A model generated the notes under the pieces. It worked only from the letters and a program-made list of their open reading frames with translations, made no database searches and had not been told where the DNA came from. This document shows, piece by piece, positions 45,203 to 63,138 of a stretch of DNA of 64,000 bases. This DNA is from Escherichia phage vB_EcoP_SU7, in sequence record NC_070980.1; one strand, written 5' to 3'. Position 1 is the first letter of the stretch. Every line of letters begins with the position of its first letter. Position numbers and translations under genes: made by a program.

Positions 45203-45850
45203 TTAACTCTCCAAAGTTTTCTTCAGGGCTGCCCACGAGATTGGGTAGAGTTTAGCCATCTCTTCGTCTAGAGATTGGGCAAACACTCGAACTTCATATT
45301 GAGCGTGAGATGAGAGTCGCTGACGACACAACTCAAACCAGCCATACAAAGAACCAGTCCAGTACCAAGTAGTTATCATACCTTGAGGCAAAACAAATCT
45401 AGCCTGTTCCGGAGCAATAAATTTAATCAATTCATCATAACTAGCAAGAGATGCTTCATACGCAGAGTTAAACAAAGCCAAAGCTTTTGCCTCCTCTTCC
45501 CCTTCAAGAAGCGCTCCAGAACCAGAGTGTAAATCATCTGGACGAGAGAAAATTTCTTTAGGTATGAAAATATCCACTGCTCCGTCTTTGTATCTACGAC
45601 TCATCTCATTCCAAGAGAATCCAACTTGATGTTTTTGTAGCTGTCGTGCGATTGCTATCGGGGCTTCACACCGGAAGCTTGCTTGTGGGTGACGAAAAGG
45701 GCTTACATGGCGTTCTCGAGCTAAGAAGTTAATAAGCCGAGTATCATTTTCTTTCAGCTCCTCCCTTTCTACTCCCATAGTTACACGAGCGGCATTTACC
45801 ACAGTAAGGTCTGATCCGAAGTTATCAATTAGTGAAGCTTTGATTGTCAT
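45203..45850 (-). CDS. thyX: Flavin-dependent thymidylate synthase (ThyX-like)
   Basis: ThyX-like ...FRHPQASFRCEAPIAIARQLQKHQVGFSWNEMSRRY; the usual RHR triad appears as KHQ here, but the alignment is by eye. Confidence 0.7.
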   Translation of the reverse strand: MTIKASLIDNFGSDLTVVNAARVTMGVEREELKENDTRLINFLARERHVSPFRHPQASFRCEAPIAIARQLQKHQVGFSWNEMSRRYKDGAVDIFIPKEIFSRPDDLHSGSGALLEGEEEAKALALFNSAYEASLASYDELIKFIAPEQARFVLPQGMITTWYWTGSLYGWFELCRQRLSSHAQYEVRVFAQSLDEEMAKLYPISWAALKKTLES

Positions 45851-47235: not shown

Positions 47236-47811
47236 TTAGTAAGACACATCACCACTAGAGTGGGACATGTTGCTCTTGACGAAGTAACAGAACTTGCCAA
47301 GACCTTCATTAATTTCTTGAAGCATACTCTGGTCCACTGGATAGGTGCACAAGTCTGAATCAAACTCATCCATCTTCTCAATGATACACATAAGAGTCAT
47401 GCACATGTCGGAAAGCATACCGTCCATGTCAAGATCAGCGTTACCTTCTCGGAACCAAGCATGACCTAAATAATTACTAGCAGTAGCATCCACCTTAACA
47501 CAATGAAAGCGCATACGCTCTGCTATTCGGTCGCCTGCCTCACGAGCATAATCTTCTAGTTCATCGAACATACCATGAACACCTTGGAAACCAGCTCCAG
47601 AGACGTTCCAGTGGTAGTTCTTTGCTTTGATGTGTAGAAGTTCAAGGTTAGCTTGCACACCACACAAGATGTGTTCTAAGCTGTTACCGCTAATCAGTTT
47701 ATTCATTCCCTCAAGACGAGAGATAGAAGAGTCAGTAGTAGAGAATGGGTTGCTAGAACCCACTCGTGTTAGTTCTGGTAAGTCGAAGACATTATTATGC
47801 ATTAGGTGCAT
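47236..47811 (-). CDS. Dps-like ferritin (DNA-protection/ferroxidase family)
   Basis: HWNVSGAGFQGVHGMFDELEDYAREAGDRIAERM matches the Dps ferroxidase-centre pattern. Confidence 0.65.
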   Translation of the reverse strand: MHLMHNNVFDLPELTRVGSSNPFSTTDSSISRLEGMNKLISGNSLEHILCGVQANLELLHIKAKNYHWNVSGAGFQGVHGMFDELEDYAREAGDRIAERMRFHCVKVDATASNYLGHAWFREGNADLDMDGMLSDMCMTLMCIIEKMDEFDSDLCTYPVDQSMLQEINEGLGKFCYFVKSNMSHSSGDVSY

Positions 47812-48616: not shown

Positions 48617-49150
48617 TTATACGCCTTTAGAAGCAACTACACCATTACTACCGTTATAACGACCCTTCACTGCATAGGAATCATCACCAGCGTGAGAGTG
48701 TTCAAACATAACCATTTGACCAACACGCATCCCAGCACGAACTCGTAAGCTGTGATTGTGGGTAACGTTATGGAACTCAAAGGTTAGCTTACTGCTATTA
48801 AACCCTGCATCAGCCCAACCAGCATGTAAGTGGTTCAAACCACAACGAGCCATAGAGGAGCGAAGTACAAACAGACTTGAGATGTTATCTGGAAGGTTAA
48901 ACTCTTCCATTGAGTGAGCTAAGAAGAACTGTCCCGGAGTGATGACAATGCCATCTTCAGGGATTTTCACTTCTTTCCACTTGAGGTTTTCTTTAGCATC
49001 AATGTCAACAATACCATCAGCCTGTTCTTCAACAAGGATAGTATCACCAATACGGATATCCACGCTAGCAGCGTTAACATATTTATGCTCCGCATCTAAA
49101 AAGCCATTATCAATAACGCTGTGTAATTCTTGAGAACCTAAAAGACTCAT
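48617..49150 (-). CDS. dcd: dCTP deaminase (dUTPase fold)
   Basis: 177 aa; N-terminal ...DNGFLDAEHKYVNAASVDIRIGD... typical of dCTP deaminase/dUTPase-fold enzymes. Confidence 0.7.
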   Translation of the reverse strand: MSLLGSQELHSVIDNGFLDAEHKYVNAASVDIRIGDTILVEEQADGIVDIDAKENLKWKEVKIPEDGIVITPGQFFLAHSMEEFNLPDNISSLFVLRSSMARCGLNHLHAGWADAGFNSSKLTFEFHNVTHNHSLRVRAGMRVGQMVMFEHSHAGDDSYAVKGRYNGSNGVVASKGV

Positions 49151-50634
49151 GAGTTTCTGTTTCCTTGTACAGATGATGCCAAATTATTAATCATATTACG
49201 AGCTGTTTCACGAGATAGTGTAACACCTGCTAGGTTGTTGTGAAGCTCACCAGATAGCTCACGAGCTGCTGCTCGTAGTTCTGCACCAAGTGCAGTGTCA
49301 GAGTGAGCTAGACCATTACGACGACCAACAGGTCGAGGAGCTTCGTTAGCGTCATTAGCTAATGATGCAAAACCAATATGAGCAGCTTCACGAGCCGCTA
49401 TAGCTGATACTCGATCTTCTGTAGGGGTTGGCAAATCACCAACTTCTACACGTTCAATATCACTAGCACGTAGACCCTGAACAACAGAGCTTACTGTTTC
49501 CCATGAACGACGAGAACGCTGCAAATCATCCATTGACGGAGATGGAATAGGACGAGCAGTTCCTCCTTGGACATGCCATGTACGAGTATCCATTCCAGAA
49601 GAGTGTGCACTACCAAAACTACCAGTGAAAGTATCACGAGGTCTTTCATGAGGTTGTACGTTATACCCTACAACACCCCCTCGAACAGTTCGAGAAGTTT
49701 CTTCATTAAAAGCTTGAAGATCTCGTCTGTTAGTTCCCGGAGTCCAAGGTCGTGTAATTGCTTCAGCACCTATAGTGGTTAATCCACTAGACCATTCTGT
49801 CTGTAGGTTAACTTCCTCGTCCAGATAACTACGACCCCTTTCCTGAGGAATGTTTAATGTAGTTTCCATCATCTTCAGGGTATAATGACGACGCTGATTC
49901 TGATATAAATTTACACCAGCCATAGGCCCAACTAAATCACTGATCAGATGAACTTCTGGTTCACCAAAAGCTCCCATTGCAAGGTGCATGTACTCAGTAG
50001 AACTGCTGTAAACTGCAACTGTTGCTTCAGGCCACTTTTTGTGGACATACTTCATGTCACGACTTGTCACCACAGGGATATCATTAGTATATGCCATTGC
50101 AAACATACCTTCGTTCGACACATACATATCATCGAGAGTCATAAACCCTTGACAAATCATAGGGAAGCGACCGCTCAGAGTATCCATATCCAGAGGGAGG
50201 TTAATCATCATCTGAATCTTCACTTCGTCAATCTCCACTTCCAAAATCTCTTGGAAAGTGAAAAGTGCTTCAGCGTAGGTTGTTCCACTGATAGGCTGAA
50301 CTAGTCGAGATGTAACTTGAAGCCCCTTACTCTCTGTCCAAGACAAGAAGTTGTCAAGGAACAGTGCAGCATTACTTACGTTAGCAGGGCTGTTTTCCTG
50401 ACGAGTGTTCCAACGGAATCCTCCTTGAACTAGGAAGATATCAACATCATTCGGAGTTCGATTTTGGAAGAACGTATCACGGATAGCACCACCTGCAATG
50501 ACAGGATAGATACCATCAGGGACTACGTTATCTCTGATCAGATTGCGAATCAGATCAAGCCCTACGCTGAGGGCTTCTCCTTCTTGAAGGTTTAATTCAG
50601 ACAATGGAATCTTAATCATTTCTACATTTTCCAA
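49147..50634 (-). CDS. Putative Pol-beta superfamily nucleotidyltransferase
   Basis: IAGGAIRD...(13 aa)...DVDIFL fits the hG[GS]...DxD minimal nucleotidyltransferase pattern (CCA-adding-like head); C-terminal about 150 aa low-complexity Ser/Arg/Ala-rich. Confidence 0.4.
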
Positions 50635-52989: not shown

Positions 52990-53195
52990 TTAGTAAAACG
53001 ATCGTATTTCTTCCCACACATCATCTTGCAAGTTTCTAAAACCCTGCAAGGTTTGCTTTGTTCTGTGAATAAATTCTTCAGAGTGCTTATCAGGTGTGAG
53101 CATACTGACAAACTTTTCATAGCGATTAATCTTCCACCGCATCTTTAAGTAGTCAGATTCAAGCTTTCTTAACTTCTGCCTGTCAGTTACTGTCA
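52990..53195 (-). CDS. Hypothetical small protein
   Basis: Track ORF trimmed to internal Met after the upstream gene's stop. Confidence 0.3.
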
Positions 53196-53614
53196 TCCTT
53201 CTCACCTGCCAGATATGCTGTCCAGTCACCCGATTCAACCAGAACATCTTGTTCTTCGTCGATGTGATAAATCCACGCTTCCACAGTTTCACCGCTGTCC
53301 AATAATACTGGAATCAGCGTACGCTTGTAAAAGGTGTATGGGTTATCATTACCACGATGACCTTCCAGACCGTCATACGGACCTTCCAGACCAGCTTGGG
53401 TTGTTTCAAAGACTTCTACACGAACAGGCTTACCATTGCTGTCATGCTCCAAAGATACACTTGGGAAGTATGCTGTGCAATATTGATACAGGTTACAGTT
53501 GTTTACTGTCCACCCTTCACCAATAGACACACCACCGGCACGAGCATTGATAGCGTGGTTGTGTTGACCTTTTCTCAAGCTTCCGTAAGTTGCAACTAGT
53601 ACTTTATCAGACAT
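53183..53614 (-). CDS. Gamma-glutamyl cyclotransferase-like (AIG2/GGCT fold) protein
   Basis: N-terminal VATYGSLRKGQHNH (YGSL motif) and 143-aa size. Confidence 0.55.
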   Translation of the reverse strand: MSDKVLVATYGSLRKGQHNHAINARAGGVSIGEGWTVNNCNLYQYCTAYFPSVSLEHDSNGKPVRVEVFETTQAGLEGPYDGLEGHRGNDNPYTFYKRTLIPVLLDSGETVEAWIYHIDEEQDVLVESGDWTAYLAGEKDDSN

Positions 53615-53680
53615 TATATTACCTTTTAGTGTTTCAGTTAAATTCGAACTAGCCTCCTCTTTCGAAGAGGCTAAAGCAAA

Positions 53681-53866
53681 TTATTCTACTTCGAAGTGTT
53701 TGATCACACCAGTCAGTACATCAGATTGGAATGTACCCACTAGCTCTGTACCTCGGAAGAAGTTGACATTTGTTCCAAGTGATTCAAAGCGATCTGCTTG
53801 AATGTCCAGAGATTGAATATTTCCTTCTGCTGACATTGTACGAAACATGATTGTGTATTTATTCAC
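53681..53866 (-). CDS. Hypothetical small protein
   Basis: 61-aa ORF inside the modification-enzyme cluster. Confidence 0.3.
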   Translation of the reverse strand: MNKYTIMFRTMSAEGNIQSLDIQADRFESLGTNVNFFRGTELVGTFQSDVLTGVIKHFEVE

Positions 53867-54105
53867 AGACTTGTTACTCCCTTATCTGCTTGTGCAATTG
53901 CGATGATACGCTCAGCACATTCCATTGAATATTTATCACCTCGTTTGAGGAAGGTGATGATTGCAGAGAACTGATTACCAATCATTCTCTTATTTGTGAT
54001 ACCGAACTCTTCACAGAGTTGGTTGATAGCTTTACGAGAGCCTACAATAAGAGGCTCTTTTTCTTCGGTCATTCCACGGCTGATCAAATCTTCGATAGAC
54101 AACAT
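53863..54105 (-). CDS. Hypothetical small protein
   Basis: 80-aa ORF coupled to neighbours. Confidence 0.3.
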   Translation of the reverse strand: MLSIEDLISRGMTEEKEPLIVGSRKAINQLCEEFGITNKRMIGNQFSAIITFLKRGDKYSMECAERIIAIAQADKGVTSL

Positions 54106-54131
54106 TACAAATTCCTTTTTGTTTAATTTAA

Positions 54132-55367
54132 TTACAGAGTTACTGCTACTTCGCTACCTTCAACATTGACAGACTCTAACTTGCGAGGGTTATGAATCTG
54201 GACTGGATTGACCGGAACGTTCCAACCACTGCGGTAGAAGTTACGACCATCACAGAACAGGATGACATTGGCAGACATTGCATTCGGTTGCAGGTTGTTG
54301 TGGACATGACGGATATTTGCAATCCAGTAGCCACGAGACAAAGTGTAGCCAGTAGGTGCATTACGAATAGTTTGAGTATTCATCTGACCTTCCAGTTGCA
54401 TTTCTTCAGGAACCACATCAACTGAATCAATCGGCTGTGCTACTTGTCCTTCCAGTGCAAAGTTTTCATCATCAGCACTTTCACTGTCAGCAACCAATTC
54501 ACCGTCCCCGTCTTCAATCGGAGTCTGGTAAACCACTTTATACTGAGGGGTATAGAGAGGGTTCTGAGCTTTAACAAACTCAAGAATGTTGTGACGATAA
54601 GTATCCAGAGTCGTACCAGTCAGTCCCGGTGCTGTGTTAACTTCCAGTACCCATGCTTCTTGACCTTTGGTGATAATATCAACTGCACCGAAATCCAGAC
54701 CCATTGATTCAACAGCTTTCACCGCATTGATCAGAGAGGCATCATTCGGAGCATCTGTGAAGGAGCTTGAGTAAACCCAGCCAGTGTGGTGATTACGAAT
54801 ATCTTCACGATAGTTAGGGTCTTCGCGATAACCATTGCGACGAATCTTCTTCTGAACATAGGTGATTACACCTTTGAACACATGGACACGCCATTCACGA
54901 CGTGGGCCTTGAATACCTTTAGTGTACAGCTCAGCCTGATCAACTGTAGTGTTAGGCTCTACAACAACAATACCTGAACCAGAGTGACCAGTCAGCTCGT
55001 GACGCTCATACACAATGTTGCCAGCGTTTGACCACTCCTGAGCAGTCTCTTGAACATCTGTGTATTCCACAGTTTTAACACCTGCTTGGTCCATCACACT
55101 GAAAGCACGACGTTTGTTCGCTGCCATATGTAAGGCTGCGGTACGGTTAAGGACGGTTGCAGAACCAAAGAATGATTCAGGATAGCGACGGTTCCCGTAG
55201 TTAACAACCACATCATCTTCACGAGAACGCCAGCGGCTATTCTCTGAAAGAAGCCCCATCACGTTAGCATTGATGCGTTCATCACGGATAGTATCACTGA
55301 TAGCAGATACCAGAGCGTTAACAGAATCAGACGGGCCATACGGAAGAACACGGATACGAGTAGTCAT
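54132..55367 (-). CDS. ATP-grasp ligase (RimK/glutathione-synthetase-like)
   Basis: ATP-grasp pattern: ...HSGSGIVVV..., ...WRVHVF..., ...EAWVLEVNTAPGL... Confidence 0.6.
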   Translation of the reverse strand: MTTRIRVLPYGPSDSVNALVSAISDTIRDERINANVMGLLSENSRWRSREDDVVVNYGNRRYPESFFGSATVLNRTAALHMAANKRRAFSVMDQAGVKTVEYTDVQETAQEWSNAGNIVYERHELTGHSGSGIVVVEPNTTVDQAELYTKGIQGPRREWRVHVFKGVITYVQKKIRRNGYREDPNYREDIRNHHTGWVYSSSFTDAPNDASLINAVKAVESMGLDFGAVDIITKGQEAWVLEVNTAPGLTGTTLDTYRHNILEFVKAQNPLYTPQYKVVYQTPIEDGDGELVADSESADDENFALEGQVAQPIDSVDVVPEEMQLEGQMNTQTIRNAPTGYTLSRGYWIANIRHVHNNLQPNAMSANVILFCDGRNFYRSGWNVPVNPVQIHNPRKLESVNVEGSEVAVTL

Positions 55368-55369
55368 TT

Positions 55370-55600
55370 TTAGATACCTTTTAGTTTAAGAATTTCGTTA
55401 CGACAGGATTGAATTTTAGCTTCGATTGCCCAATACTCAGCGAACATTTCGTCTTCTTGGGCATCGCTTGGAGAGTCGATTAAGTTAAAAGCAAACGGAT
55501 ACAGCTTTCGCTGCTCCGTTACCAGTTGTTGAAGTCGGAGTTGTTGATACTCCAGCATTGTCAGGTGAGGCTTAGCTCCCTTGCTTGACATGAGGCTCAA
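55370..55600 (-). CDS. Hypothetical small protein
   Basis: 76-aa ORF. Confidence 0.3.
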   Translation of the reverse strand: MSLMSSKGAKPHLTMLEYQQLRLQQLVTEQRKLYPFAFNLIDSPSDAQEDEMFAEYWAIEAKIQSCRNEILKLKGI

Positions 55601-55805
55601 CTTTAATCCCCTTCATTTTAACATAGTCAGCCAACACGTTGTTGATAACGGTTGGAAAAGGGATTTCTACTGGAGAATCAACCAGCTTCCCAATACCTTC
55701 TTGCATCCACTTCTGAATTGCTCGGAGGTTATCACATCCTGTGCTTGTCATCGGAATACGGCGGGTAGTTACCACGTTATCCAACATCAGTTTACGAACT
55801 TCCAT
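55572..55805 (-). CDS. Hypothetical small protein
   Basis: 77-aa ORF. Confidence 0.3.
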   Translation of the reverse strand: MEVRKLMLDNVVTTRRIPMTSTGCDNLRAIQKWMQEGIGKLVDSPVEIPFPTVINNVLADYVKMKGIKVEPHVKQGS

Positions 55806-55816
55806 AACTATACCTC

Positions 55817-57850
55817 TTAGTGTTTACCTTTACAGTAATCTGAATTACAGATCACCCTGTTTTCTTTGTTCAGTGAGCAAGTTTCTGCATCACGCCACGG
55901 AATTTGTTTATAACAGACTGCACAAAACCCAATTGAAGTCCAGAGGGCTTTTGTGAACTCGGCTGTTCGTTGTCCATCATAGCTGACAACTGTTTTTCGG
56001 AGAGAGGTTGACTTTTTTGGAAATGTCTCCGCTTTCTCAGCGGGTACCTCCTTTGGGGAATTCTTTGGACCATAAACAGAGATGGCATAAGTATCACCAC
56101 CACGTTTTTCCAAATACGAATTAGGAACATCTGCAAGTGTAATATCCCCTGAACGTTTTGCTGAGCTAACCATTACGATCATACGGCTAAGCATACGTTC
56201 ATCAACACGAACAGCTACTTCAGGACGACGTGGGTTGGTTGTGTCTACTGCTTTAGTCCAAATATAACCCTCAGATAGAGTAACATTCTTTACTTTATCT
56301 TTGATTTCTTTGGAGCAGATATAACAAACATCTTCACCACGAAGTTTACTCATTTCGTTGTCAAACTCGAAATCAGTCTTGACTTCACCACAGACAGCAC
56401 ATACGCCCAAAGGCACATCTTCTTCATCTTCAGAGATTTTAGATAACGCTTCGAAGCATTCTGGATGCCAGTATGCTTGATAAGCAAACACAGCCTTACG
56501 AGCATCTTTCCAGTCAATGTGCTTATCACAACCACCACAATCACCATGAGAGTGAGATTCCCAGAACTTACGAGTGACTTCTACACCATTTTTAGTGATG
56601 AAGGAGTCCTCTGCATCAAAAGGGATGTCATCATCAAAATCAGCAGTAGTGCTTTGAGGCTCCTTATCTGTAGCATCAACAAACAGCCCTGAAGTTAGTA
56701 CGAGGCGAATCATACTGTCCACTTCGGAGATACAAGCAATCGTCCCGCGATATACTACCTTTGGGTTTTCAAGAGCCTTAAGATATTCATCTTTGGCTAC
56801 GTTGTGAACATCCCCTTCGACATACTCTTGGGCTTTATCGTCGTAGATGTAACCAATCATCTTACCACGATCTGTGTTGTTATAAGCATGGAACTCGTGA
56901 GGAATAATATCCACACGACCATCACGACGATAAGGAAGACCACGATCGGCAGCCAGTTTGTTCTGGTCTTCAATCGCTTTACGACGACGAATGTCTCCGC
57001 TTGTCACGCCGGGCTTGTCGTCTTTGTTTCCGTAAATGTCGCTTGTGCTGCTGCTTGATTTGTTTGTCTGTTGGTTCTGATATAGAGAGGAGTTCGAGTA
57101 ATAGCCGCCCCAGCGACTCGTTATCGTAAAAACCGGAAGCTTGTGCTCCACCTCTTGAACCAGAGTCATACGACTGTTAGACACATCAAAGATATACTCA
57201 GTTCCCACTTTACATTCGAAGTGGTCATTGATACGGTTCTTGTGGGATTTAGAACGCTCTAAAATCCACATAAGCATAGCTTCTTCAGAAGCCCCAAACC
57301 AATCTAAACCACAACGGGCTAGGTGGAAAGGACGCTCATCATTACGGATAATGTGAAGCGTGTTGTCTTTAGCATCATGCCAAATCAAAGTGAATGCACC
57401 ATCCAGTTTTTGGATAGTCTCTGCTGCTCCAATGGTATTAATTGAGTGGCAGATGTTTTCACTATCAACTTCGAAACGCTTACTGTCAGGAAGGAGATCT
57501 TGATCTAACAGGGTTCCATTATGAACCAGAGTAATATCCCCGTGAGTAAATGGGTGAGCATTTCGAGCATTGACAGCCCCACGAGTGGCATGTCGGCTGT
57601 GACCAACAATCCACGAAGGAGGAACTACGTAGTTCGTAAGCCCTTTGGTAATATTTGTATATTCTGTCTGGAGCATAAAAGCATAAGAAGGAAGAGCTTC
57701 TTTATAAGAGAAGACTTGCTTTTCACCTTTACGCTGACCAAACACACCAGTTGAGTGCTGTCCACGGAAAACACCAGCATACAGAAGTTGGTTGAAAATA
57801 TCCAAATCTGTTGAGGTCATGTTGCCGCCAGCTAATACGATACCACAAAT
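55817..57850 (-). CDS. Class II (Ntn-type) glutamine amidotransferase with C-terminal Cys-rich domain; predicted AUU start
   Basis: In-frame upstream of the track ATG (57820) the sequence reads TAG AAA ATT TGT GGT ATC = stop-K-I-C-G-I-V, i.e. the conserved (M)CGIV nucleophile; the only start placing Cys at position 2 is ATT 57848-57850, with AGGTGG SD 8 nt upstream. Downstream RGQHSTGV, GHSRHATRG, NAHPF, HNG motifs. Confidence 0.6.
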   Translation of the reverse strand: MCGIVLAGGNMTSTDLDIFNQLLYAGVFRGQHSTGVFGQRKGEKQVFSYKEALPSYAFMLQTEYTNITKGLTNYVVPPSWIVGHSRHATRGAVNARNAHPFTHGDITLVHNGTLLDQDLLPDSKRFEVDSENICHSINTIGAAETIQKLDGAFTLIWHDAKDNTLHIIRNDERPFHLARCGLDWFGASEEAMLMWILERSKSHKNRINDHFECKVGTEYIFDVSNSRMTLVQEVEHKLPVFTITSRWGGYYSNSSLYQNQQTNKSSSSTSDIYGNKDDKPGVTSGDIRRRKAIEDQNKLAADRGLPYRRDGRVDIIPHEFHAYNNTDRGKMIGYIYDDKAQEYVEGDVHNVAKDEYLKALENPKVVYRGTIACISEVDSMIRLVLTSGLFVDATDKEPQSTTADFDDDIPFDAEDSFITKNGVEVTRKFWESHSHGDCGGCDKHIDWKDARKAVFAYQAYWHPECFEALSKISEDEEDVPLGVCAVCGEVKTDFEFDNEMSKLRGEDVCYICSKEIKDKVKNVTLSEGYIWTKAVDTTNPRRPEVAVRVDERMLSRMIVMVSSAKRSGDITLADVPNSYLEKRGGDTYAISVYGPKNSPKEVPAEKAETFPKKSTSLRKTVVSYDGQRTAEFTKALWTSIGFCAVCYKQIPWRDAETCSLNKENRVICNSDYCKGKH

Positions 57851-57927
57851 TTTCTAATCCACCTGAAGGGTAAACCCTTTCATCTAATTAACCTTTAAAT
57901 GCGCCCTTTATCAGAGCGCCCATTGTG

Positions 57928-59028
57928 TTACAGCAGTCGTTCTAATTGCATTTCCAGATGGTCTGGAATGTAATCAGTGATGTTATTATCACTGCTACCT
58001 GATTCACGCATCAGAGCAAACATGTGACGAATTTCACGAACCGTTGCGATTCGAGTGCTTTCAATCTGAGGGGTGTAGTAGGTCATGATCTCTTCATAGA
58101 CAGTGTTGGCATTACCGCGCACATATCCCAAGAAACCATAGAAGTCATTCATATCACGTAAGTTGATAAGGACTTCACCATCAGGGCCAGTCTGTTGCAC
58201 ACGAACACGACCAACCAAAGTTACAGATTGCTCACGACAGAACAGAATATCACGAGCAAGACGATACCCTTCAGTGAGATCACTGTCTCTTGGAGTATAG
58301 TCTAGGGGTAGATGTTGAATCATAGGAGCGAAGCGCAGCTCATTCAACTTCTCAACATAAGCTTCATTGTCTAAATCTGCATATTCAACAGCCAGTTTCT
58401 TGAGAACCAAGAAGCGGTTGACCAGATTCAGAAGTTGGCTCTTTTTCCACTTCGGCTCTGAGATACGGAACTCAACAGAACCAAATTGAGATAGAGGCAA
58501 AAGATTAAGGGAGGTATATTTATCCCAGCTATTAACAAGAGAGTGGAAGAAAGCTTCCCCGTCTCGGTTGAACGCTGACGAAGCATTCATAACTTGTGCT
58601 TGAACGACAGCAAAAGCTGGACAGAAGTTGCTACGATAGCGATGGTATCCAGAACATTTGAACATCATCTTTTCATAGAACGTCCATCCAAGAATAACTT
58701 TCTTAAGGATATTACTATCAGCGTCACGCATATCCATATGAACGTGAGTGGAACAGCGCCAAGTTCCCTCGGCTCCAGAATCCTGTACTGCTTCACTCAG
58801 ATTGTTAATAGCACGAAGTAATTCTTCACCGTTGTAAGGTCGTGCACATACTAATTCACAACCATCACGAAGAGAGCCATCTTCAGTACAAACCCACATA
58901 TCAGCGTCAATGTTAGTTGTACCTTCGACTTCTAACTCAATACCAACACCACACTGAAAAGCAATACTTGGATGCGGTTCAGATAAGCGAGGGTTACGGT
59001 ATCCAAAAACTTGTGCTACGGTTGTCAT
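57928..59028 (-). CDS. Amidoligase-like (glutamine-synthetase-like carboxylate-amine ligase) protein
   Basis: GVGIELEVEG and CSTHVHMD motifs resembling phage amidoligase families. Confidence 0.45.
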   Translation of the reverse strand: MTTVAQVFGYRNPRLSEPHPSIAFQCGVGIELEVEGTTNIDADMWVCTEDGSLRDGCELVCARPYNGEELLRAINNLSEAVQDSGAEGTWRCSTHVHMDMRDADSNILKKVILGWTFYEKMMFKCSGYHRYRSNFCPAFAVVQAQVMNASSAFNRDGEAFFHSLVNSWDKYTSLNLLPLSQFGSVEFRISEPKWKKSQLLNLVNRFLVLKKLAVEYADLDNEAYVEKLNELRFAPMIQHLPLDYTPRDSDLTEGYRLARDILFCREQSVTLVGRVRVQQTGPDGEVLINLRDMNDFYGFLGYVRGNANTVYEEIMTYYTPQIESTRIATVREIRHMFALMRESGSSDNNITDYIPDHLEMQLERLL

Positions 59029-59651
59029 AATGATTCCACCAACTCTACATTATATGATGACAGGTCTGAAGAAATATGCTTGAACTTCTCCAGAAGGTTT
59101 AAAGATTGACGACCATTGTCGCCATAACCAGCTTCAAGAAGCACGTTTCCAACGTAAGCTCCTTTGTAATAAACTTTTCCATCGACAGGATTGATATAGA
59201 TGAAACGAGTAACCAACCCTTCAAACTCTGGATTAAACAGGTTGTACACCAAATCACCCGGAATCGAACGTCCGAGAGAAGGTGGAGTACCACGAAGTTT
59301 ATTCCCCATCAATCCTTTAGCTCGCTGACGAACAGGGTTGATATGGGTCCAGCTCACCATGTTATTACCATGCTGAAGGTATCCTACATCTGGAGACTCC
59401 AGAATGAGGCTGTGATCAAACACTGGGATATTACTAACAATCTGACGCTCAAACTGACCTTCGGAGTTTTTAGTCCAGCGTTCCGCCTCAAACACTAAAG
59501 ACATTTCAGCGTCGTGTGAGTAGTCGTCGATATCAAAGTTACCTTGCTGACGAACATCAAGCACATATAGAGGGAGGTTTTTACCATCAGGTGATCGCTG
59601 AGCAATCCATGTTCCACAATAATAGTGTTGAAAATCTCTTAACAAGCTCAC
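59025..59651 (-). CDS. Hypothetical protein (within the ligase cluster)
   Basis: 208-aa ORF coupled to the flanking ligase genes. Confidence 0.4.
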   Translation of the reverse strand: MSLLRDFQHYYCGTWIAQRSPDGKNLPLYVLDVRQQGNFDIDDYSHDAEMSLVFEAERWTKNSEGQFERQIVSNIPVFDHSLILESPDVGYLQHGNNMVSWTHINPVRQRAKGLMGNKLRGTPPSLGRSIPGDLVYNLFNPEFEGLVTRFIYINPVDGKVYYKGAYVGNVLLEAGYGDNGRQSLNLLEKFKHISSDLSSYNVELVESL

Positions 59652-59660
59652 AATATCACC

Positions 59661-60470
59661 TTATACAATCTGGAGTTTAGAGGAGAATTTATCCGCTTCT
59701 TTAACATCGTTACTGTTGATGATGTTGTGAAGCTTTTCAATTGGAAGGCGAGAGTGAAGTGACATCAATACTTCCATATCACAGCCTTGAACAACCTTAT
59801 CAACTTGCTCATAAACAAACTTGCGGGTTGACTTCTCGCCAATCCAGAAGTTAGAAAGAGAACGATATTCAATACCGTAATCTTTGTAGCGAATGGCAGA
59901 AGCCTTTCCGTATAACTCTTTACGACGAGTATCTTTATCCATGATCACAGCTGGCAAGGACAGGAAGTAATCACACAACACACCTAACATCATTTGAGTC
60001 TGACGACTAATTTCCAGCGTACCAGTGACGCCAAGGTGAACATGACCACCAGCAGTACGCAGACCTTTGTCTGTCGCTACTGGAGATGGGTTTTTCTGAC
60101 CAGTGAAGGCGTTGAAATCAGGAGTACAACCAAATACAAAGGCTGACGGATGGAAAGATTCCATCTCTTCTGAAGTGAACACATGAGAGCTAATCCCAAG
60201 TGCTGCCTCCATGCCACGTTCATTGAGAACTTTGTTAGTCAGATCAATACCACGCTGAATGTTATCATTAAACGCTTCAAACCCTTTCTGTGGGTTAATA
60301 TCGAACTCGGCCAGAACGTTGTCTTCTTGAAGACGAACATCAGGGGCCAGATCAATTTTGTTGTCTTTAGAGCAGCCCAGCTTACCAGCCACAGAGGTGA
60401 TAATACCAGAAGCAGTACGAACAAACATTTCCGGATCCGACCCTATTAAGAATTTACGTTTAGTAGTCAT
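59661..60470 (-). CDS. Second amidoligase-like / carboxylate-amine ligase protein
   Basis: IGSDPEMFV (acidic ligase-type N-terminal motif) and AGGHVHLGV motif; divergent paralogue-like. Confidence 0.4.
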   Translation of the reverse strand: MTTKRKFLIGSDPEMFVRTASGIITSVAGKLGCSKDNKIDLAPDVRLQEDNVLAEFDINPQKGFEAFNDNIQRGIDLTNKVLNERGMEAALGISSHVFTSEEMESFHPSAFVFGCTPDFNAFTGQKNPSPVATDKGLRTAGGHVHLGVTGTLEISRQTQMMLGVLCDYFLSLPAVIMDKDTRRKELYGKASAIRYKDYGIEYRSLSNFWIGEKSTRKFVYEQVDKVVQGCDMEVLMSLHSRLPIEKLHNIINSNDVKEADKFSSKLQIV

Positions 60471-60937
60471 GCTTTAGTCCAACCTTTATGAGATAGATAG
60501 TTTTTAAATCTGCCACTGTGCACAGCGCCCATGTGGCCTTGATGTAAGTCGTTGCTTCTACAGAAGTCTTTAAGATTGTATATTGTTACAACCTCGCCAT
60601 CTGGAGATCTAAACTTCCAAAATCTAGCATTCCCTTTCACAGCGTTTTCTTCACTGGTCAGAAGTTGGAAATTACTTGGGTGGTTATTAAGTTTATCGCC
60701 ATCGATGTGATCAACAGTCATACCATCCGGAATAGGCCCAATAAACAATTCATACATAAGTCTATGTAATAAAAAGTTCCTTGTTATCTTTTCAGGAGCC
60801 TGAACTGTTGTAAACTTAAGATAACCATCTTTATCAGGAAACAGTTTCCTCTGTTTCCCTGTTCTTGCATGGAATATACTACCGTCTTCGAACACCAAGA
60901 AGGTAGCAACTCCGACTACTAACTCCCTAAATTCCAT
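60467..60937 (-). CDS. HNH endonuclease (inserted within the ligase cluster)
   Basis: VDHIDGDKLNNHPSNFQLLTSEENAVKGN HNH_3 motif. Confidence 0.65.
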   Translation of the reverse strand: MEFRELVVGVATFLVFEDGSIFHARTGKQRKLFPDKDGYLKFTTVQAPEKITRNFLLHRLMYELFIGPIPDGMTVDHIDGDKLNNHPSNFQLLTSEENAVKGNARFWKFRSPDGEVVTIYNLKDFCRSNDLHQGHMGAVHSGRFKNYLSHKGWTKA

Positions 60938-60961
60938 AGAGAACCAATAAGGAAAGCACGC

Positions 60962-61912
60962 TTAGTCATTGTAATACTCCACGAGTTCATCAAAAAGGGA
61001 AACAACACGAGCACCAGCTTCTTCTGGTGTCATTGAGGAAGGTACTGCTTGCATCAGACGTTCGATAAAACTTCGAACAGTAATTCTGTCCATACGCTGA
61101 TCTAATACTTCTCGCTTGTGACCTGCACAAGTTGACCAGAGACGTAACCACTCACTCATACTCTCATAATGGTCAGGGTCTTGGTCACGACGACGTGCCA
61201 TACGACGGAGAACTCCATCATTATGGTTTCGTACATAACCATCTCGGTTGTCATCAACACCGAATACATTCTGAACCCATACGTTTTCAGAAAATTCATC
61301 AGTGGTGCAAATTAATGGCAGAAATGCAATTGCACTCATGTCGCCATCAAAATAAGTCGCTGCTGACTCATCGGTTGAGTCTACGTCATTACTATAACAC
61401 CAGCGACCAAAGAAGTTACGACTTAAACCAGCTAAGCGTAGAGCTAAACCGATTCGTTGTCGCTTAAGCAACTCTTCCTTGTCTTGTACGCCTTCCTGAA
61501 GGAACTCCATTCCATTAAAATCACCATCCAAATAGCTACGGATGGTCATTAGTCCAGTAAACACCTTGTCTGCTGGATGGTTTCGAAGGTTCACGGCAAT
61601 GGAGTTCACCGAAGTGACAGAGAACATATCTTTATAGCAAGACATTGAGTTAAAAATATCTGTTGCTTCAACTAAAGCTCTTTCGATATCTTTAGCTGGC
61701 ACGCCATAAAAATTGTGAGGCCAGAAGTTAATAACTTCAATTTCTGAAGTTCTATCACGAAGGCTTGTTCGGTTACGACTTTCACCGTTAATGTCTGTAA
61801 CAGAATACATGTGCATACAGTTAAAAGTACCAAAGCAAGCTCTTCCTTTGAACACTGACTCACCGAAATCCTCTGCCGGTGTTACCGGAGCAATCGATGC
61901 GGAGATTGACAT
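60962..61912 (-). CDS. Hypothetical protein
   Basis: 316-aa ORF, no recognised motif. Confidence 0.4.
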   Translation of the reverse strand: MSISASIAPVTPAEDFGESVFKGRACFGTFNCMHMYSVTDINGESRNRTSLRDRTSEIEVINFWPHNFYGVPAKDIERALVEATDIFNSMSCYKDMFSVTSVNSIAVNLRNHPADKVFTGLMTIRSYLDGDFNGMEFLQEGVQDKEELLKRQRIGLALRLAGLSRNFFGRWCYSNDVDSTDESAATYFDGDMSAIAFLPLICTTDEFSENVWVQNVFGVDDNRDGYVRNHNDGVLRRMARRRDQDPDHYESMSEWLRLWSTCAGHKREVLDQRMDRITVRSFIERLMQAVPSSMTPEEAGARVVSLFDELVEYYND

Positions 61913-61920
61913 ATTCGCCT

Positions 61921-63138
61921 CTATTTATTAAAGAATAGTTTTTCCATAATGGTTTCCCACTCTTCTGAGGGGAGGGTTGAGAACCCGTTTCCGTGAAGCC
62001 TGTTTGTCATGCAACTAATAATATTGTACATGTTGTAGCTTCGGGTGGATTCTGTTCCATTGTTCCAGTTGTAACCGAAAACAATTTTATCGAAGGAGGT
62101 TTTATCCGTAGTTACTTCTCGGATAAACTCAACCAAGAGCGATTTCTCTGTGATGACCGCACGTTCACCATCTGGCAGATTGCAATACTGAGGAAGAAGG
62201 ATTGGTAAGAACATCGAATTGTTCACTCGACAATCACGAACACCTTCACTGCGATAGATTAGGCTTGAGAAGTCTTCATCACGCAGGTGTCCTTCACCTT
62301 CAGTGTATTCACACTGTCGCCACTTGGTCTGGCGAGGCTCAATCATTGTACTACCAACGCCTACTGTATACAGAGACGCTTGGAAAATACATGAATCGTA
62401 ATCATTCCCTGTTAAAGCAACACGTTCGTTACCGAACACATCCACTGAAGAGTTGATCAGTCGGCTGAATGCAAGAGAGGCTAGTGGAGACCAACCTTTC
62501 TTATACATCTTGTTCAGCATTTCATACACAGCAGATTTTTCATCATCTGTATAGAATGTACGATTCAGCATCAGATAGAACAGAGCGCGATCAGCAGGAC
62601 AACCATCAGTACAAACACCCATGAATCCTACTTCATGCCATACCAGACATGAGTCAGAATCTTTATCCATGAATGCTTCAAAGGCTTCCATTACAGCCCT
62701 GTCAGTAACATCAGGACGGTTGTTTTCTTCTGCCCATGTTTCTACATGAGAAGGGGGACGAGGGTCTCCATTCTCCACCCCTTCGCGGAAATATTGAGTG
62801 GTAATAGGCTTTTTATCACCATAACGTTTTACACCATAAGCGGGAAGGTGTGTACCAGAGTTCCAGATGTACTTGATTTCGGACATAGGCATCATGTTTT
62901 CGAGAACATTCTCTTCAGCAGTGCCTTGACGAACCATCATACCCTCACTCCACACCTTAATACGGATATTCCAGCCAAAATTGCTGTCATATGCGTTGTA
63001 GTAGTCAGGATAACCATCTTCATCTTCATCATAATCACCACCCTGATAGTAACCTGCTTTCAGGAAACCATAACAAGGAGGCCAGACGGTTACAACATCA
63101 TCTGATTCTTTCCAGCTTTGAAGTGTTACAGGGAACAT
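61921..63138 (-). CDS. Hypothetical protein
   Basis: 405-aa ORF with acidic Tyr/Asp-rich N-terminal region; first gene of the long minus-strand run ending in the ligase cluster. Confidence 0.4.
   Translation of the reverse strand: MFPVTLQSWKESDDVVTVWPPCYGFLKAGYYQGGDYDEDEDGYPDYYNAYDSNFGWNIRIKVWSEGMMVRQGTAEENVLENMMPMSEIKYIWNSGTHLPAYGVKRYGDKKPITTQYFREGVENGDPRPPSHVETWAEENNRPDVTDRAVMEAFEAFMDKDSDSCLVWHEVGFMGVCTDGCPADRALFYLMLNRTFYTDDEKSAVYEMLNKMYKKGWSPLASLAFSRLINSSVDVFGNERVALTGNDYDSCIFQASLYTVGVGSTMIEPRQTKWRQCEYTEGEGHLRDEDFSSLIYRSEGVRDCRVNNSMFLPILLPQYCNLPDGERAVITEKSLLVEFIREVTTDKTSFDKIVFGYNWNNGTESTRSYNMYNIISCMTNRLHGNGFSTLPSEEWETIMEKLFFNK

Follow-up and report, generated by a model that had tools for sequence, protein, structure and literature searches.

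The 64,000-nucleotide stretch of Escherichia phage vB_EcoP_SU7 analyzed here (NC_070980.1; hereafter "the window") carries at 53.1-63.2 kb a run of minus-strand open reading frames (ORFs), among which lies a cassette of genes predicted to make and break amide bonds. The window comes from a coliphage of the Gordonclarkvirinae, i.e., phiEco32-like podophages with prolate, C3-type heads: along its entire length, the region shares 97.3% identity with Escherichia phage OliverMaurmann_Bas86 (Bas86), and it is 88-98% identical to about 20 further Gordonclarkvirinae (89% for ECBP2). A preliminary description of this DNA had proposed one co-directional set of five enzymes acting on amide bonds. The five ORFs indeed lie where it had placed them, all on the minus strand and with intact catalytic residues, and a profile hidden Markov model (HMM) check of each ORF confirmed every enzyme family it had named. 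The cassette is larger than this description held, as it also includes the proteins X3, X2, and DUF7195; X1 probably belongs to it as well, as its first gene. Pfam calls were judged against curated bit cut-offs, and conservation of catalytic residues was scored over 41-84 homologs per family. From high to low coordinates, the genes are:

61921-63138, minus strand: X1, 405 aa; no Pfam hit; N-terminal Cys in a PPCYG motif
60962-61912, minus strand: X2, 316 aa; no Pfam hit; in many lineages immediately precedes the COOH-NH2 ligase
59661-60470, minus strand: COOH-NH2 ligase type 2, 269 aa; PF14395 (E = 1.6e-8, 34.5 bits against a cut-off of 25), phrog_3815 (E = 1e-112)
59025-59651, minus strand: X3, 208 aa; two small SH3/Tudor/KOW-like beta-barrels
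57928-59028, minus strand: Amidoligase_2, 366 aa; PF12224 (E = 2.2e-8, 34.7 bits against 22), phrog_7469 (E = 3e-142)
55817-57850, minus strand: class II (Ntn) glutamine amidotransferase (GATase), 677 aa; GATase_6 (E = 2.6e-14, 53.8 bits against 27)
55572-55805, minus strand: DUF7195 protein, 77 aa, accessory member; PF23825 (E = 3.3e-19)
54132-55367, minus strand: RimK-like ATP-grasp ligase, 411 aa; phrog_2599 (E = 4e-169), with phrog_20552 on the C-terminus
53183-53614, minus strand: GGACT/AIG2-like gamma-glutamyl(amine) cyclotransferase (GGCT), 143 aa; PF06094 (E = 8.9e-16, 59 bits against 22.8), phrog_2520 (E = 4e-41)

The COOH-NH2 ligase and Amidoligase_2, between which lies X3 alone, are both predicted to be carboxylate-amine ligases of the glutamine synthetase/gamma-glutamylcysteine synthetase (GS/GCS) fold, and both retain the Glu/Asp/His/Arg set of residues. 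In the former, D12, E14, D50, E55, C115, R138, H143, H145, R183, E201, and R203 are invariant across 75 homologs; in the latter, the invariant positions are G29, E31, E33, E35, D50, E58, H95, H97, E119, R130, E186, and R188. Sequence-profile searches of the PDB returned nothing for the COOH-NH2 ligase, Amidoligase_2, or X3, and GGCT alone likewise returned nothing.

The amidotransferase consists of an Ntn domain, a conserved middle domain without assigned function, and a lineage-specific Cys-rich C-terminus. The fusion to a Cys-rich domain, already pointed out in the preliminary description, is real and comprises three CxxC-type modules past residue ~425. The start at position 57850 had also been placed correctly: an ATT codon, preceded 8 nt before by an AGGTGG Shine-Dalgarno sequence, opens the N-terminus M-C-G-I-V, which provides the Ntn Cys1 nucleophile, and an in-frame TAG lies two codons upstream (window 57845-57870, minus strand). 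This N-terminus is conserved as M-C-G-[ILV] in 86 of 91 homologs, along with R29, G30, H84, R86, T89, N111, G112, and D129, and the glutamine-binding residues (Arg, Asn-Gly, Asp) are kept. The ATT start is found in 11 of the 91 homologs, namely all Gordonclarkvirinae loci and four environmental ones, most other lineages using ATG; such a rare start codon may hold the glutaminase at a low level. In Pseudomonas phage TL (locus L003, 10780-11881), the amidotransferase is annotated without any CDS, as two misc_features covering its N- and C-terminal parts, and our own ORF call spans 279 aa only, so that TL may be a viable phage with a natural frameshift or knock-out of the glutaminase.

The ATP-grasp protein is RimK-like, judging from its profile matches, and hence a putative enzyme of the alpha-L-glutamate ligase type. 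Its family profile matches the RimK structures 7qys, 7qyr, 5zct, and 4iwx (E-values of 2e-9 to 5e-8, residues 40-256), while D-Ala-D-Ala ligases match at the C-terminal ATP/Mg motif only, and K85, E158, R160, K174, D230, E242, and N244 are invariant. Compared with RimK, LysX, CofF, and MptN, the protein aligns to RimK along the full extent of the catalytic domain, with the ATP/Mg residues conserved, but it scores under the cut-off for Pfam RimK (19.7 bits against 21) and far below the equivalog cut-offs of NCBIfam (MptN, E = 1e-9, 37.8 bits against 350; rimK_fam, 29.5 against 143.4), carries an extra, lineage-specific C-terminal domain (approximately residues 336-402), and lacks RimA and RimB partners. 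The last enzyme, GGCT, keeps the YGSL motif (Y10, G11, L13) and a catalytic-type Glu84 within L-E-G.

X3 has few invariant residues and looks like a non-enzymatic protein, namely an adaptor or scaffold, possibly a substrate. Its AlphaFold2 model (pLDDT 90.9, pTM 0.81) shows the two barrels joined by a flexible basic loop that includes the conserved R108...G113 motif of the family, which numbers 1,105 clusters at 50% identity, nearly all of them standalone proteins of ~200 aa. In X2 (AlphaFold2 model with pLDDT 81.8 and pTM 0.83), Cys26 of an A-C-F-G motif is the sole invariant residue. X1 is linked by hhalign to an X2-like family (70% probability), its Cys aligns with the only invariant column of that comparison (alignment A3), and it has positional equivalents in TL (gp13), Aeromonas phage 4_4572 (gene 136), and Proteus phage P59 (gp109). 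On the strength of hhalign probabilities of up to 97%, X1, X2, and the upstream proteins of other lineages are assigned to one divergent family. Its 29 members share a lone invariant column, a Cys about 25 residues from the N-terminus in the context C-[FY]-[GA], and the X1/X2 fold could not be matched to known relatives. No transmembrane-like segment was found in any cassette protein.

Gene order and gamma-glutamyl-removing enzymes

To evaluate the conservation of this gene set, 89 loci were gathered from GenBank phages and IMG/VR, searched by iterative local HMMs with every window protein, and drawn as gene-order maps; 53 of these were considered complete, i.e., with ≥7 kb of flank on each side of the COOH-NH2 ligase. 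In 53/53 complete loci, the COOH-NH2 ligase is joined by Amidoligase_2, GATase, and ATP-grasp in an unchanged order, a clustering far beyond chance. X3 is present in 50/53, GGCT in 29/53, and DUF7195 in 21/53. The universal core, found in 50-53 of the 53 complete loci, thus consists of the COOH-NH2 ligase, X3, Amidoligase_2, Ntn-glutaminase, and RimK-like ATP-grasp, and the near-invariant order reads [X2-like protein of ~300 aa], COOH-NH2 ligase, X3, Amidoligase_2, GATase, (DUF7195), ATP-grasp, (GGCT), usually followed by primase/helicase and polymerase/exonuclease genes. DUF7195 sits between GATase and ATP-grasp in 23 loci, from enterobacterial, Aeromonas, and Pseudomonas phages.

This order of the five core genes recurs through loci L003-L089 and is common to phiEco32-, LUZ24-, 7-11-, and PA11-type phages. 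It spans Gordonclarkvirinae, Bruynoghevirus, Lahexavirus, Grimontviridae, Zobellviridae, a crAss-like phage, and Rhizobium phages, i.e., phage families that differ in host and virion type. Homologs of the COOH-NH2 ligase were detected by tblastn in 310 of 50,697 GenBank phage records, primarily from phages of Pseudomonas (121) and Escherichia (92), with further records from Vibrio, Aeromonas, Proteus, Salmonella, and Rhizobium phages and a crAss-like phage, and at least 3,373 homologs were found among metagenomic protein clusters. Among the ligase homologs listed, none had a cellular (non-phage) context: all were on phage-sized contigs, and a single contig of 189 kb bears the same cassette.

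The enzyme that would remove a gamma-glutamyl group differs between lineages. In many lineages without GGCT, a Peptidase_C26 gene adjoins the cassette (E-values of 1e-16 to 3e-12), encoding an enzyme of the gamma-glutamyl hydrolase/PuuD type with a class I GATase fold. These variants (loci L006, L007, L008, L009, and 15 others) come from Zobellviridae-type, Vibrio, crAss-like, and Rhizobium phages, and Peptidase_C26 is absent from this window. Among the 53 complete loci, 27 carry GGCT only, 17 Peptidase_C26 only, 2 both, and 7 neither. After dereplication at 60% ligase identity, the corresponding counts for the 26 lineages are 9, 13, 2, and 2, a near-exclusion (Fisher p = 9e-4) from which phylogenetic dependence is not fully removed. 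Since two unrelated gamma-glutamyl-removing enzymes replace each other, this pattern suggests an intermediate or product with a gamma-glutamyl amide. Three further features agree with this, namely the RimK type of the ATP-grasp, the glutamine-binding Ntn domain, and the GCS fold of the ligases, and together they place glutamate at the center of the cassette's chemistry.

No informative domain fusion was seen among long variants of X3, Amidoligase_2, GATase, and ATP-grasp or among long X3 homologs in a representative library, and no common docking domain was detected between the ATP-grasp C-terminus, the middle and C-terminal regions of GATase, the Amidoligase_2 C-terminus, X3, DUF7195, and the small ORFs. 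Searches with PADLOC models of defence systems were negative. Matches to the phiEco32 middle/late promoter motif TAATGTATA number 22 in the window, where 18 would be expected; the motif thus shows no enrichment, and no claim on transcription timing was drawn from it. Homologs of ATP-grasp, GATase, and GGCT have been seen by mass spectrometry in preparations of Kuravirus SU10 (PMC4281155).

A homing endonuclease insertion and lineage-specific ORFs

The preliminary description had left several small ORFs between the enzymes without a role. Two of these, X3 and DUF7195, turned out to be cassette members, as described above, while the ORF at 60467-60937 encodes an HNH homing endonuclease and is no pathway gene. 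The remaining features of the region are:

60467-60937, minus strand: HNH_3 homing endonuclease (Pfam HNH_3, E = 2.9e-17), a mobile insert outside the pathway
60940-60969, minus strand: relic 5' end of the COOH-NH2 ligase gene (MTKRAFLIGS), severed by the HNH insertion
55370-55600, minus strand: small ORF of ~74-76 aa; phrog_13464; 9 loci, in Gordonclarkvirinae and close environmental relatives only
53863-54105, minus strand: lineage-specific small ORF, 80 aa; phrog_8339/phrog_8591 pair; 9 loci
53681-53866, minus strand: lineage-specific small ORF, 61 aa; phrog_8339/phrog_8591 pair; 7 loci

The HNH gene is absent from most close relatives, which cover just 94% of the query, and its insertion point lies 30 nt inside the COOH-NH2 ligase gene. 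The severed relic is identical to the gene start of the HNH-less phage IME267 apart from two synonymous differences at third codon positions. From 60470 the ligase ORF begins anew; its 5' end there, MTTKRKFLIGSDPE, is a recoded duplicate, with GATCCGGAA in place of GACCCTGAA, and overlaps the HNH stop codon. This arrangement looks like the free-standing insertion of a homing endonuclease that would carry a cleavage-resistant copy of its own target. The GenBank record of Bas86 annotates the split ligase gene as a two-exon join; we rejected this intron reading, since the recoded duplicate of the 5' end is better explained by a free-standing HNH insertion.

Small-ORF content varies within the genus. 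IME267 (locus L002, 3641-4057) and several of its relatives carry an extra ORF of 138 aa between the GGCT gene and the 61-aa ORF, which is missing from this window (53615-53680) and from Bas86.

Proposed chemistry and candidate acceptors

Taken together, the predicted enzyme classes and their conserved order suggest, with a probability of roughly 0.6, that the cassette encodes an ATP-driven cytoplasmic line that would assemble and then trim a glutamate-based, peptide-like adduct. Its proteins are soluble and encoded directly upstream of replication genes. In this scheme, the two GS/GCS-fold ligases and the ATP-grasp enzyme would each convert a carboxylate to its acyl-phosphate and couple this with an amine. 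Glutamine would be hydrolyzed by the Ntn glutaminase, and the ammonia released would go to a carboxylate activated by one of the ligases, with the neighboring Amidoligase_2 as the most plausible partner; alternatively, the Ntn enzyme may cleave a gamma-glutamyl amide, as EgtC does. The GGACT-type enzyme would act last, with the N-terminal gamma-glutamyl group leaving as 5-oxoproline, in which case gamma-glutamylation would serve as a transient handle or protecting group. X3 with its SH3-like barrels, X1/X2 with their invariant Cys, and DUF7195 would be non-catalytic partners that hold the acceptor or assemble the enzymes.

Two characterized pathways offer partial parallels. The butirosin proteins BtrJ, BtrI, and BtrG combine an ATP-grasp ligase, an acyl carrier protein, and a GGCT-family cyclotransferase around a gamma-glutamyl protecting group. 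The cassette similarly pairs an ATP-grasp with a GGACT/AIG2-type cyclotransferase, which would imply a removable gamma-glutamyl, and includes small or adaptor proteins alongside; however, no PP-binding carrier domain was detected in its small ORFs, and it adds two GS-fold ligases and an Ntn glutaminase. The likeness is thus one of logic only, not a whole-pathway homology. Ergothioneine biosynthesis (EgtA/EgtC) likewise uses a GCS-type ligase and a class II GATase-like enzyme acting on a gamma-glutamyl amide, but the similarity to EgtC is marginal (E = 0.006), and equivalents of EgtB, EgtD, and EgtE are absent.

Several points weigh against the proposed assembly line. Among solved structures, no relative of either GS-fold ligase can be detected by sequence, so that the carboxylate and amine that they join are a guess. 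Instead of donating ammonia, GATase could act as a hydrolase; X1/X2 are absent from, or went undetected in, 19/53 complete loci; and the GGCT/C26 complementarity is partly confounded by phylogeny. In addition, the cassette lies directly upstream of primase/helicase and polymerase genes in most lineages, and the Gordonclarkvirinae are unusually resistant to restriction-modification (BASEL), which gives a nucleic-acid role some residual likelihood.

The preliminary description had also held that the target cannot be read from the sequence, and our analysis agrees. We judge a non-DNA acceptor much likelier than DNA, the candidates being a peptide precursor of the cell wall, a protein, and an amine of polyamine type or a cofactor tail. 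For the first of these, the cassette would remodel peptidoglycan stem peptides or cytoplasmic precursors by forming or cleaving their unusual gamma-glutamyl and D-amino-acid linkages, and so alter the envelope of the infected cell and block superinfection by other phages. This reading is rather doubtful, but has some points in its favor: stem peptides are built by similar classes of enzyme, all host groups seen have peptidoglycan, a cytoplasmic localization would suit UDP-MurNAc-peptide precursors, and the ATP-grasp has a weak D-Ala-D-Ala ligase motif match. Against this, the ATP-grasp is RimK-like over its whole catalytic domain and resembles D-Ala-D-Ala ligases at the shared ATP/Mg motif only, and the cassette includes no Mur-ligase and no membrane or periplasmic component. 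GGACT-type enzymes are known for acting on L-gamma-glutamyl amines with a free alpha-amino group, which a stem peptide lacks, and three conserved non-enzymatic partners would be unexpected for precursor editing. The idea is a published one: papers citing Iyer 2009 and Hardies 2013 credit them with the hypothesis that a cell-wall change prevents superinfection.

A protein acceptor seems to us about equally conceivable, if similarly doubtful. The ligases would here build a glutamate tag on a host factor recognized by X3, or on a phage protein (X3, X1/X2, or DUF7195), in a form of protein tagging or carrier chemistry for which RimK/S6, LysX/LysW, and Pup ligase provide precedents. The RimK family has protein-modifying members, GS-fold ligases include Pup ligase, and X1/X2 hold one invariant Cys. 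X3 is conserved like the enzymes, has a fold of a peptide- or nucleic-acid-binding type, and displays its sole conserved motif on an exposed flexible loop. However, no Pup_ligase, Pup, ubiquitin-like, or PP-binding hit was obtained for any cassette protein, no conserved acidic or Gly-Gly C-terminus was identified, no case of X3 fused to an enzyme was found, and X1/X2 are not universal.

Alternatively, the phage could gamma-glutamylate, extend, and deprotect a polyamine, small amine, or cofactor tail, thereby tuning these pools for DNA condensation or countering host responses. The best-studied members of three cassette-associated families, i.e., GS-type PuuA/PauA, the Peptidase_C26 PuuD, and GGACT, act on gamma-glutamyl amines, and the exchange of GGCT and C26 between lineages would fit such a role. 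The Puu/Pau pathway and mammalian GGACT thus share with the cassette the classes of GS-fold ligase, Peptidase_C26 (in cassette variants elsewhere), and gamma-glutamylamine cyclotransferase. The cassette ligases are nevertheless outside the GlnA/PuuA family (no Gln-synt_C hit), Peptidase_C26 is not in the window, oxidase and dehydrogenase steps are absent, and a polyamine role would leave three ligases and several adaptors unexplained. We consider this acceptor unlikely. A weak lead from yeast two-hybrid, in which the LUZ24 early protein gp9 bound the host gamma-glutamylpolyamine synthetase SpuB (PMC4635203), is unconfirmed and concerns a gene outside the cassette. Rather improbable as well, in our estimate, is a tagging machine with a carrier or adaptor (the X1/X2 Cys or the X3 loop) and a removable gamma-glutamyl, which would put a glutamate-derived mark on a host or phage protein or on phage DNA and underlie the broad resistance of Gordonclarkvirinae to restriction and further defences.

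Even less probable is a nucleic-acid acceptor, in which case phage DNA or one of its nucleotide precursors would receive an amino acid or a peptide-like group, yielding a hypermodified base that guards against restriction. A nucleic-acid target had been suggested from the proximity of ThyX and dCTP deaminase, and is not supported by the present analysis. These two are canonical (ThyX, 45203-45850, Thy1 at 5e-43; dCTP deaminase, 48617-49150, DCD at 1.6e-34), and are ordinary dTMP-supply enzymes located 4-7 kb off, past the primase/helicase, exonuclease, and nucleotidyltransferase genes. Phage DNA hypermodifications include thymidine hypermodifications derived from 5-hydroxymethyldeoxyuridine and 7-deazaguanines. 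The pathways behind them resemble the cassette in being phage multi-enzyme sets within the replication/nucleotide arm, some using amino acids or glutamine amidotransferases, but none of their enzymes (hydroxymethylase, 5-HMUDK kinase, aGPT-Pplase, DpdA, QueC/D/E) was found here. Specifically, a scan for modification families detected no enzyme that would create or insert a modified base (dUMP/dCMP hydroxymethylase, DpdA, TET/JBP) among the ORFs at 43-64 kb, and no hydroxymethylase, DpdA, TET/JBP, kinase, or glycosyltransferase was found in or near the cassette across the 89 loci.

Restriction-site counts bear on the same question. The position of the cassette immediately upstream of primase/helicase and polymerase genes in most lineages would suit a DNA target, and the window holds 12 EcoRI and 29 EcoRV sites, so the published resistance of this phage group to these enzymes is not due to site loss alone. 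At the same time, sites are strongly avoided over positions 1-64000, both for CCWGG (3 observed, ~101 expected) and GATC (132 observed, 297 expected) and for many 6-mer palindromes, including those of PstI (0 observed, 20 expected), SacI (0 and 23), SphI (0 and 10), BamHI (1 and 12), and KpnI (2 and 14), for a total of 633 6-mer palindromes observed against 948 expected; this DNA is thus apparently exposed to restriction. A hypermodification pathway would be expected to make virion DNA refractory to ordinary type II enzymes; according to the literature, virion DNA of phage tf, which bears the full cassette (loci L055 and H76), was cut by five such enzymes (RsaI, HpaI, EcoRV, SmaI, and HaeIII), ligated, and cloned. 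The BASEL authors, who report no known modification pathway, suspect the dCTP deaminase and nucleotidyltransferase of a possible DNA modification, and not the cassette.

Two neighboring proteins may be mentioned here. A protein of 495 aa (49147-50634, minus strand) is encoded between the polymerase exonuclease subunit and dCTP deaminase; its relatives are annotated as nucleotidyltransferase, and in SU10 as "class II CCA-adding enzyme domain", and searches of Pfam, NCBIfam, and PADLOC gave no hits for it. A protein of 191 aa (47236-47811, minus strand) has a ferritin-like (Dps-type) domain (E = 7e-8) and is annotated in Bas86 as a DNA-binding protein; six peptides of its SU10 homolog were recovered from phage preparations.

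Finally, marine phage papers briefly raise a generic auxiliary metabolism ("host material recycling", nitrogen metabolism), in which host glutamine, glutamate, and peptides would be recycled for nucleotide and protein synthesis with no specific product. This is highly improbable: three ATP-consuming ligases and conserved adaptors would be costly for degradation, and the strict order of the five genes, kept in phage families that infect different hosts and build different virions, suggests a dedicated product made in several steps.

Relation to the published phiEco32/RIO-1 cassette

The gene set is already known as the phiEco32/RIO-1 "amidoligase" or "peptidoglycan modification" cassette. The preliminary description was correct in stating that similar phage gene sets have been predicted without biochemistry, as targeted full-text searches of the literature yielded predictions only and no biochemical or genetic test of the cassette, but it understated how well known the set is: a Pfam family is named after it (PF14395, "Phage phiEco32-like COOH.NH2 ligase-type 2"), and close relatives carry functional annotation in their GenBank records. 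The cassette was described by comparative genomics in 2009 (Iyer et al. 2009 Mol Biosyst); further accounts are those of Hardies et al. 2013 J Virol and Duhaime et al. 2017 (PMC5498523). Citing papers refer to a seven-gene "peptidoglycan modification cassette" and name as carriers RIO-1-like phages, phiEco32, 7-11, PA11, tf, MR299-2, LUZ24, PaP3, and CW02. The published cassette and the one described here agree in gene families, gene order, and phage subfamily, and the published carriers match the lineages recovered in this study. Nothing substantive differs, although the window has the HNH insertion in the ligase gene.

The present analysis adds a larger cassette, the fold and conservation of X3, X1/X2, and DUF7195, and the GGCT/C26 complementarity. 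The cassette takes up 8-10 kb of the 76-kb genome and would use ATP at three steps, a sizeable cost to the phage, and it is among the most widespread uncharacterized enzyme sets of virulent podophages. Phages Bas86-93 of the BASEL collection carry it and plate on engineered E. coli K-12, which opens the question to genetics and mass spectrometry. Solving the acceptor would show whether the cell-wall hypothesis is right or whether the cassette makes a new kind of modification on proteins or metabolites or, less probably, on DNA, and would also give functions to two protein families without known fold relatives.

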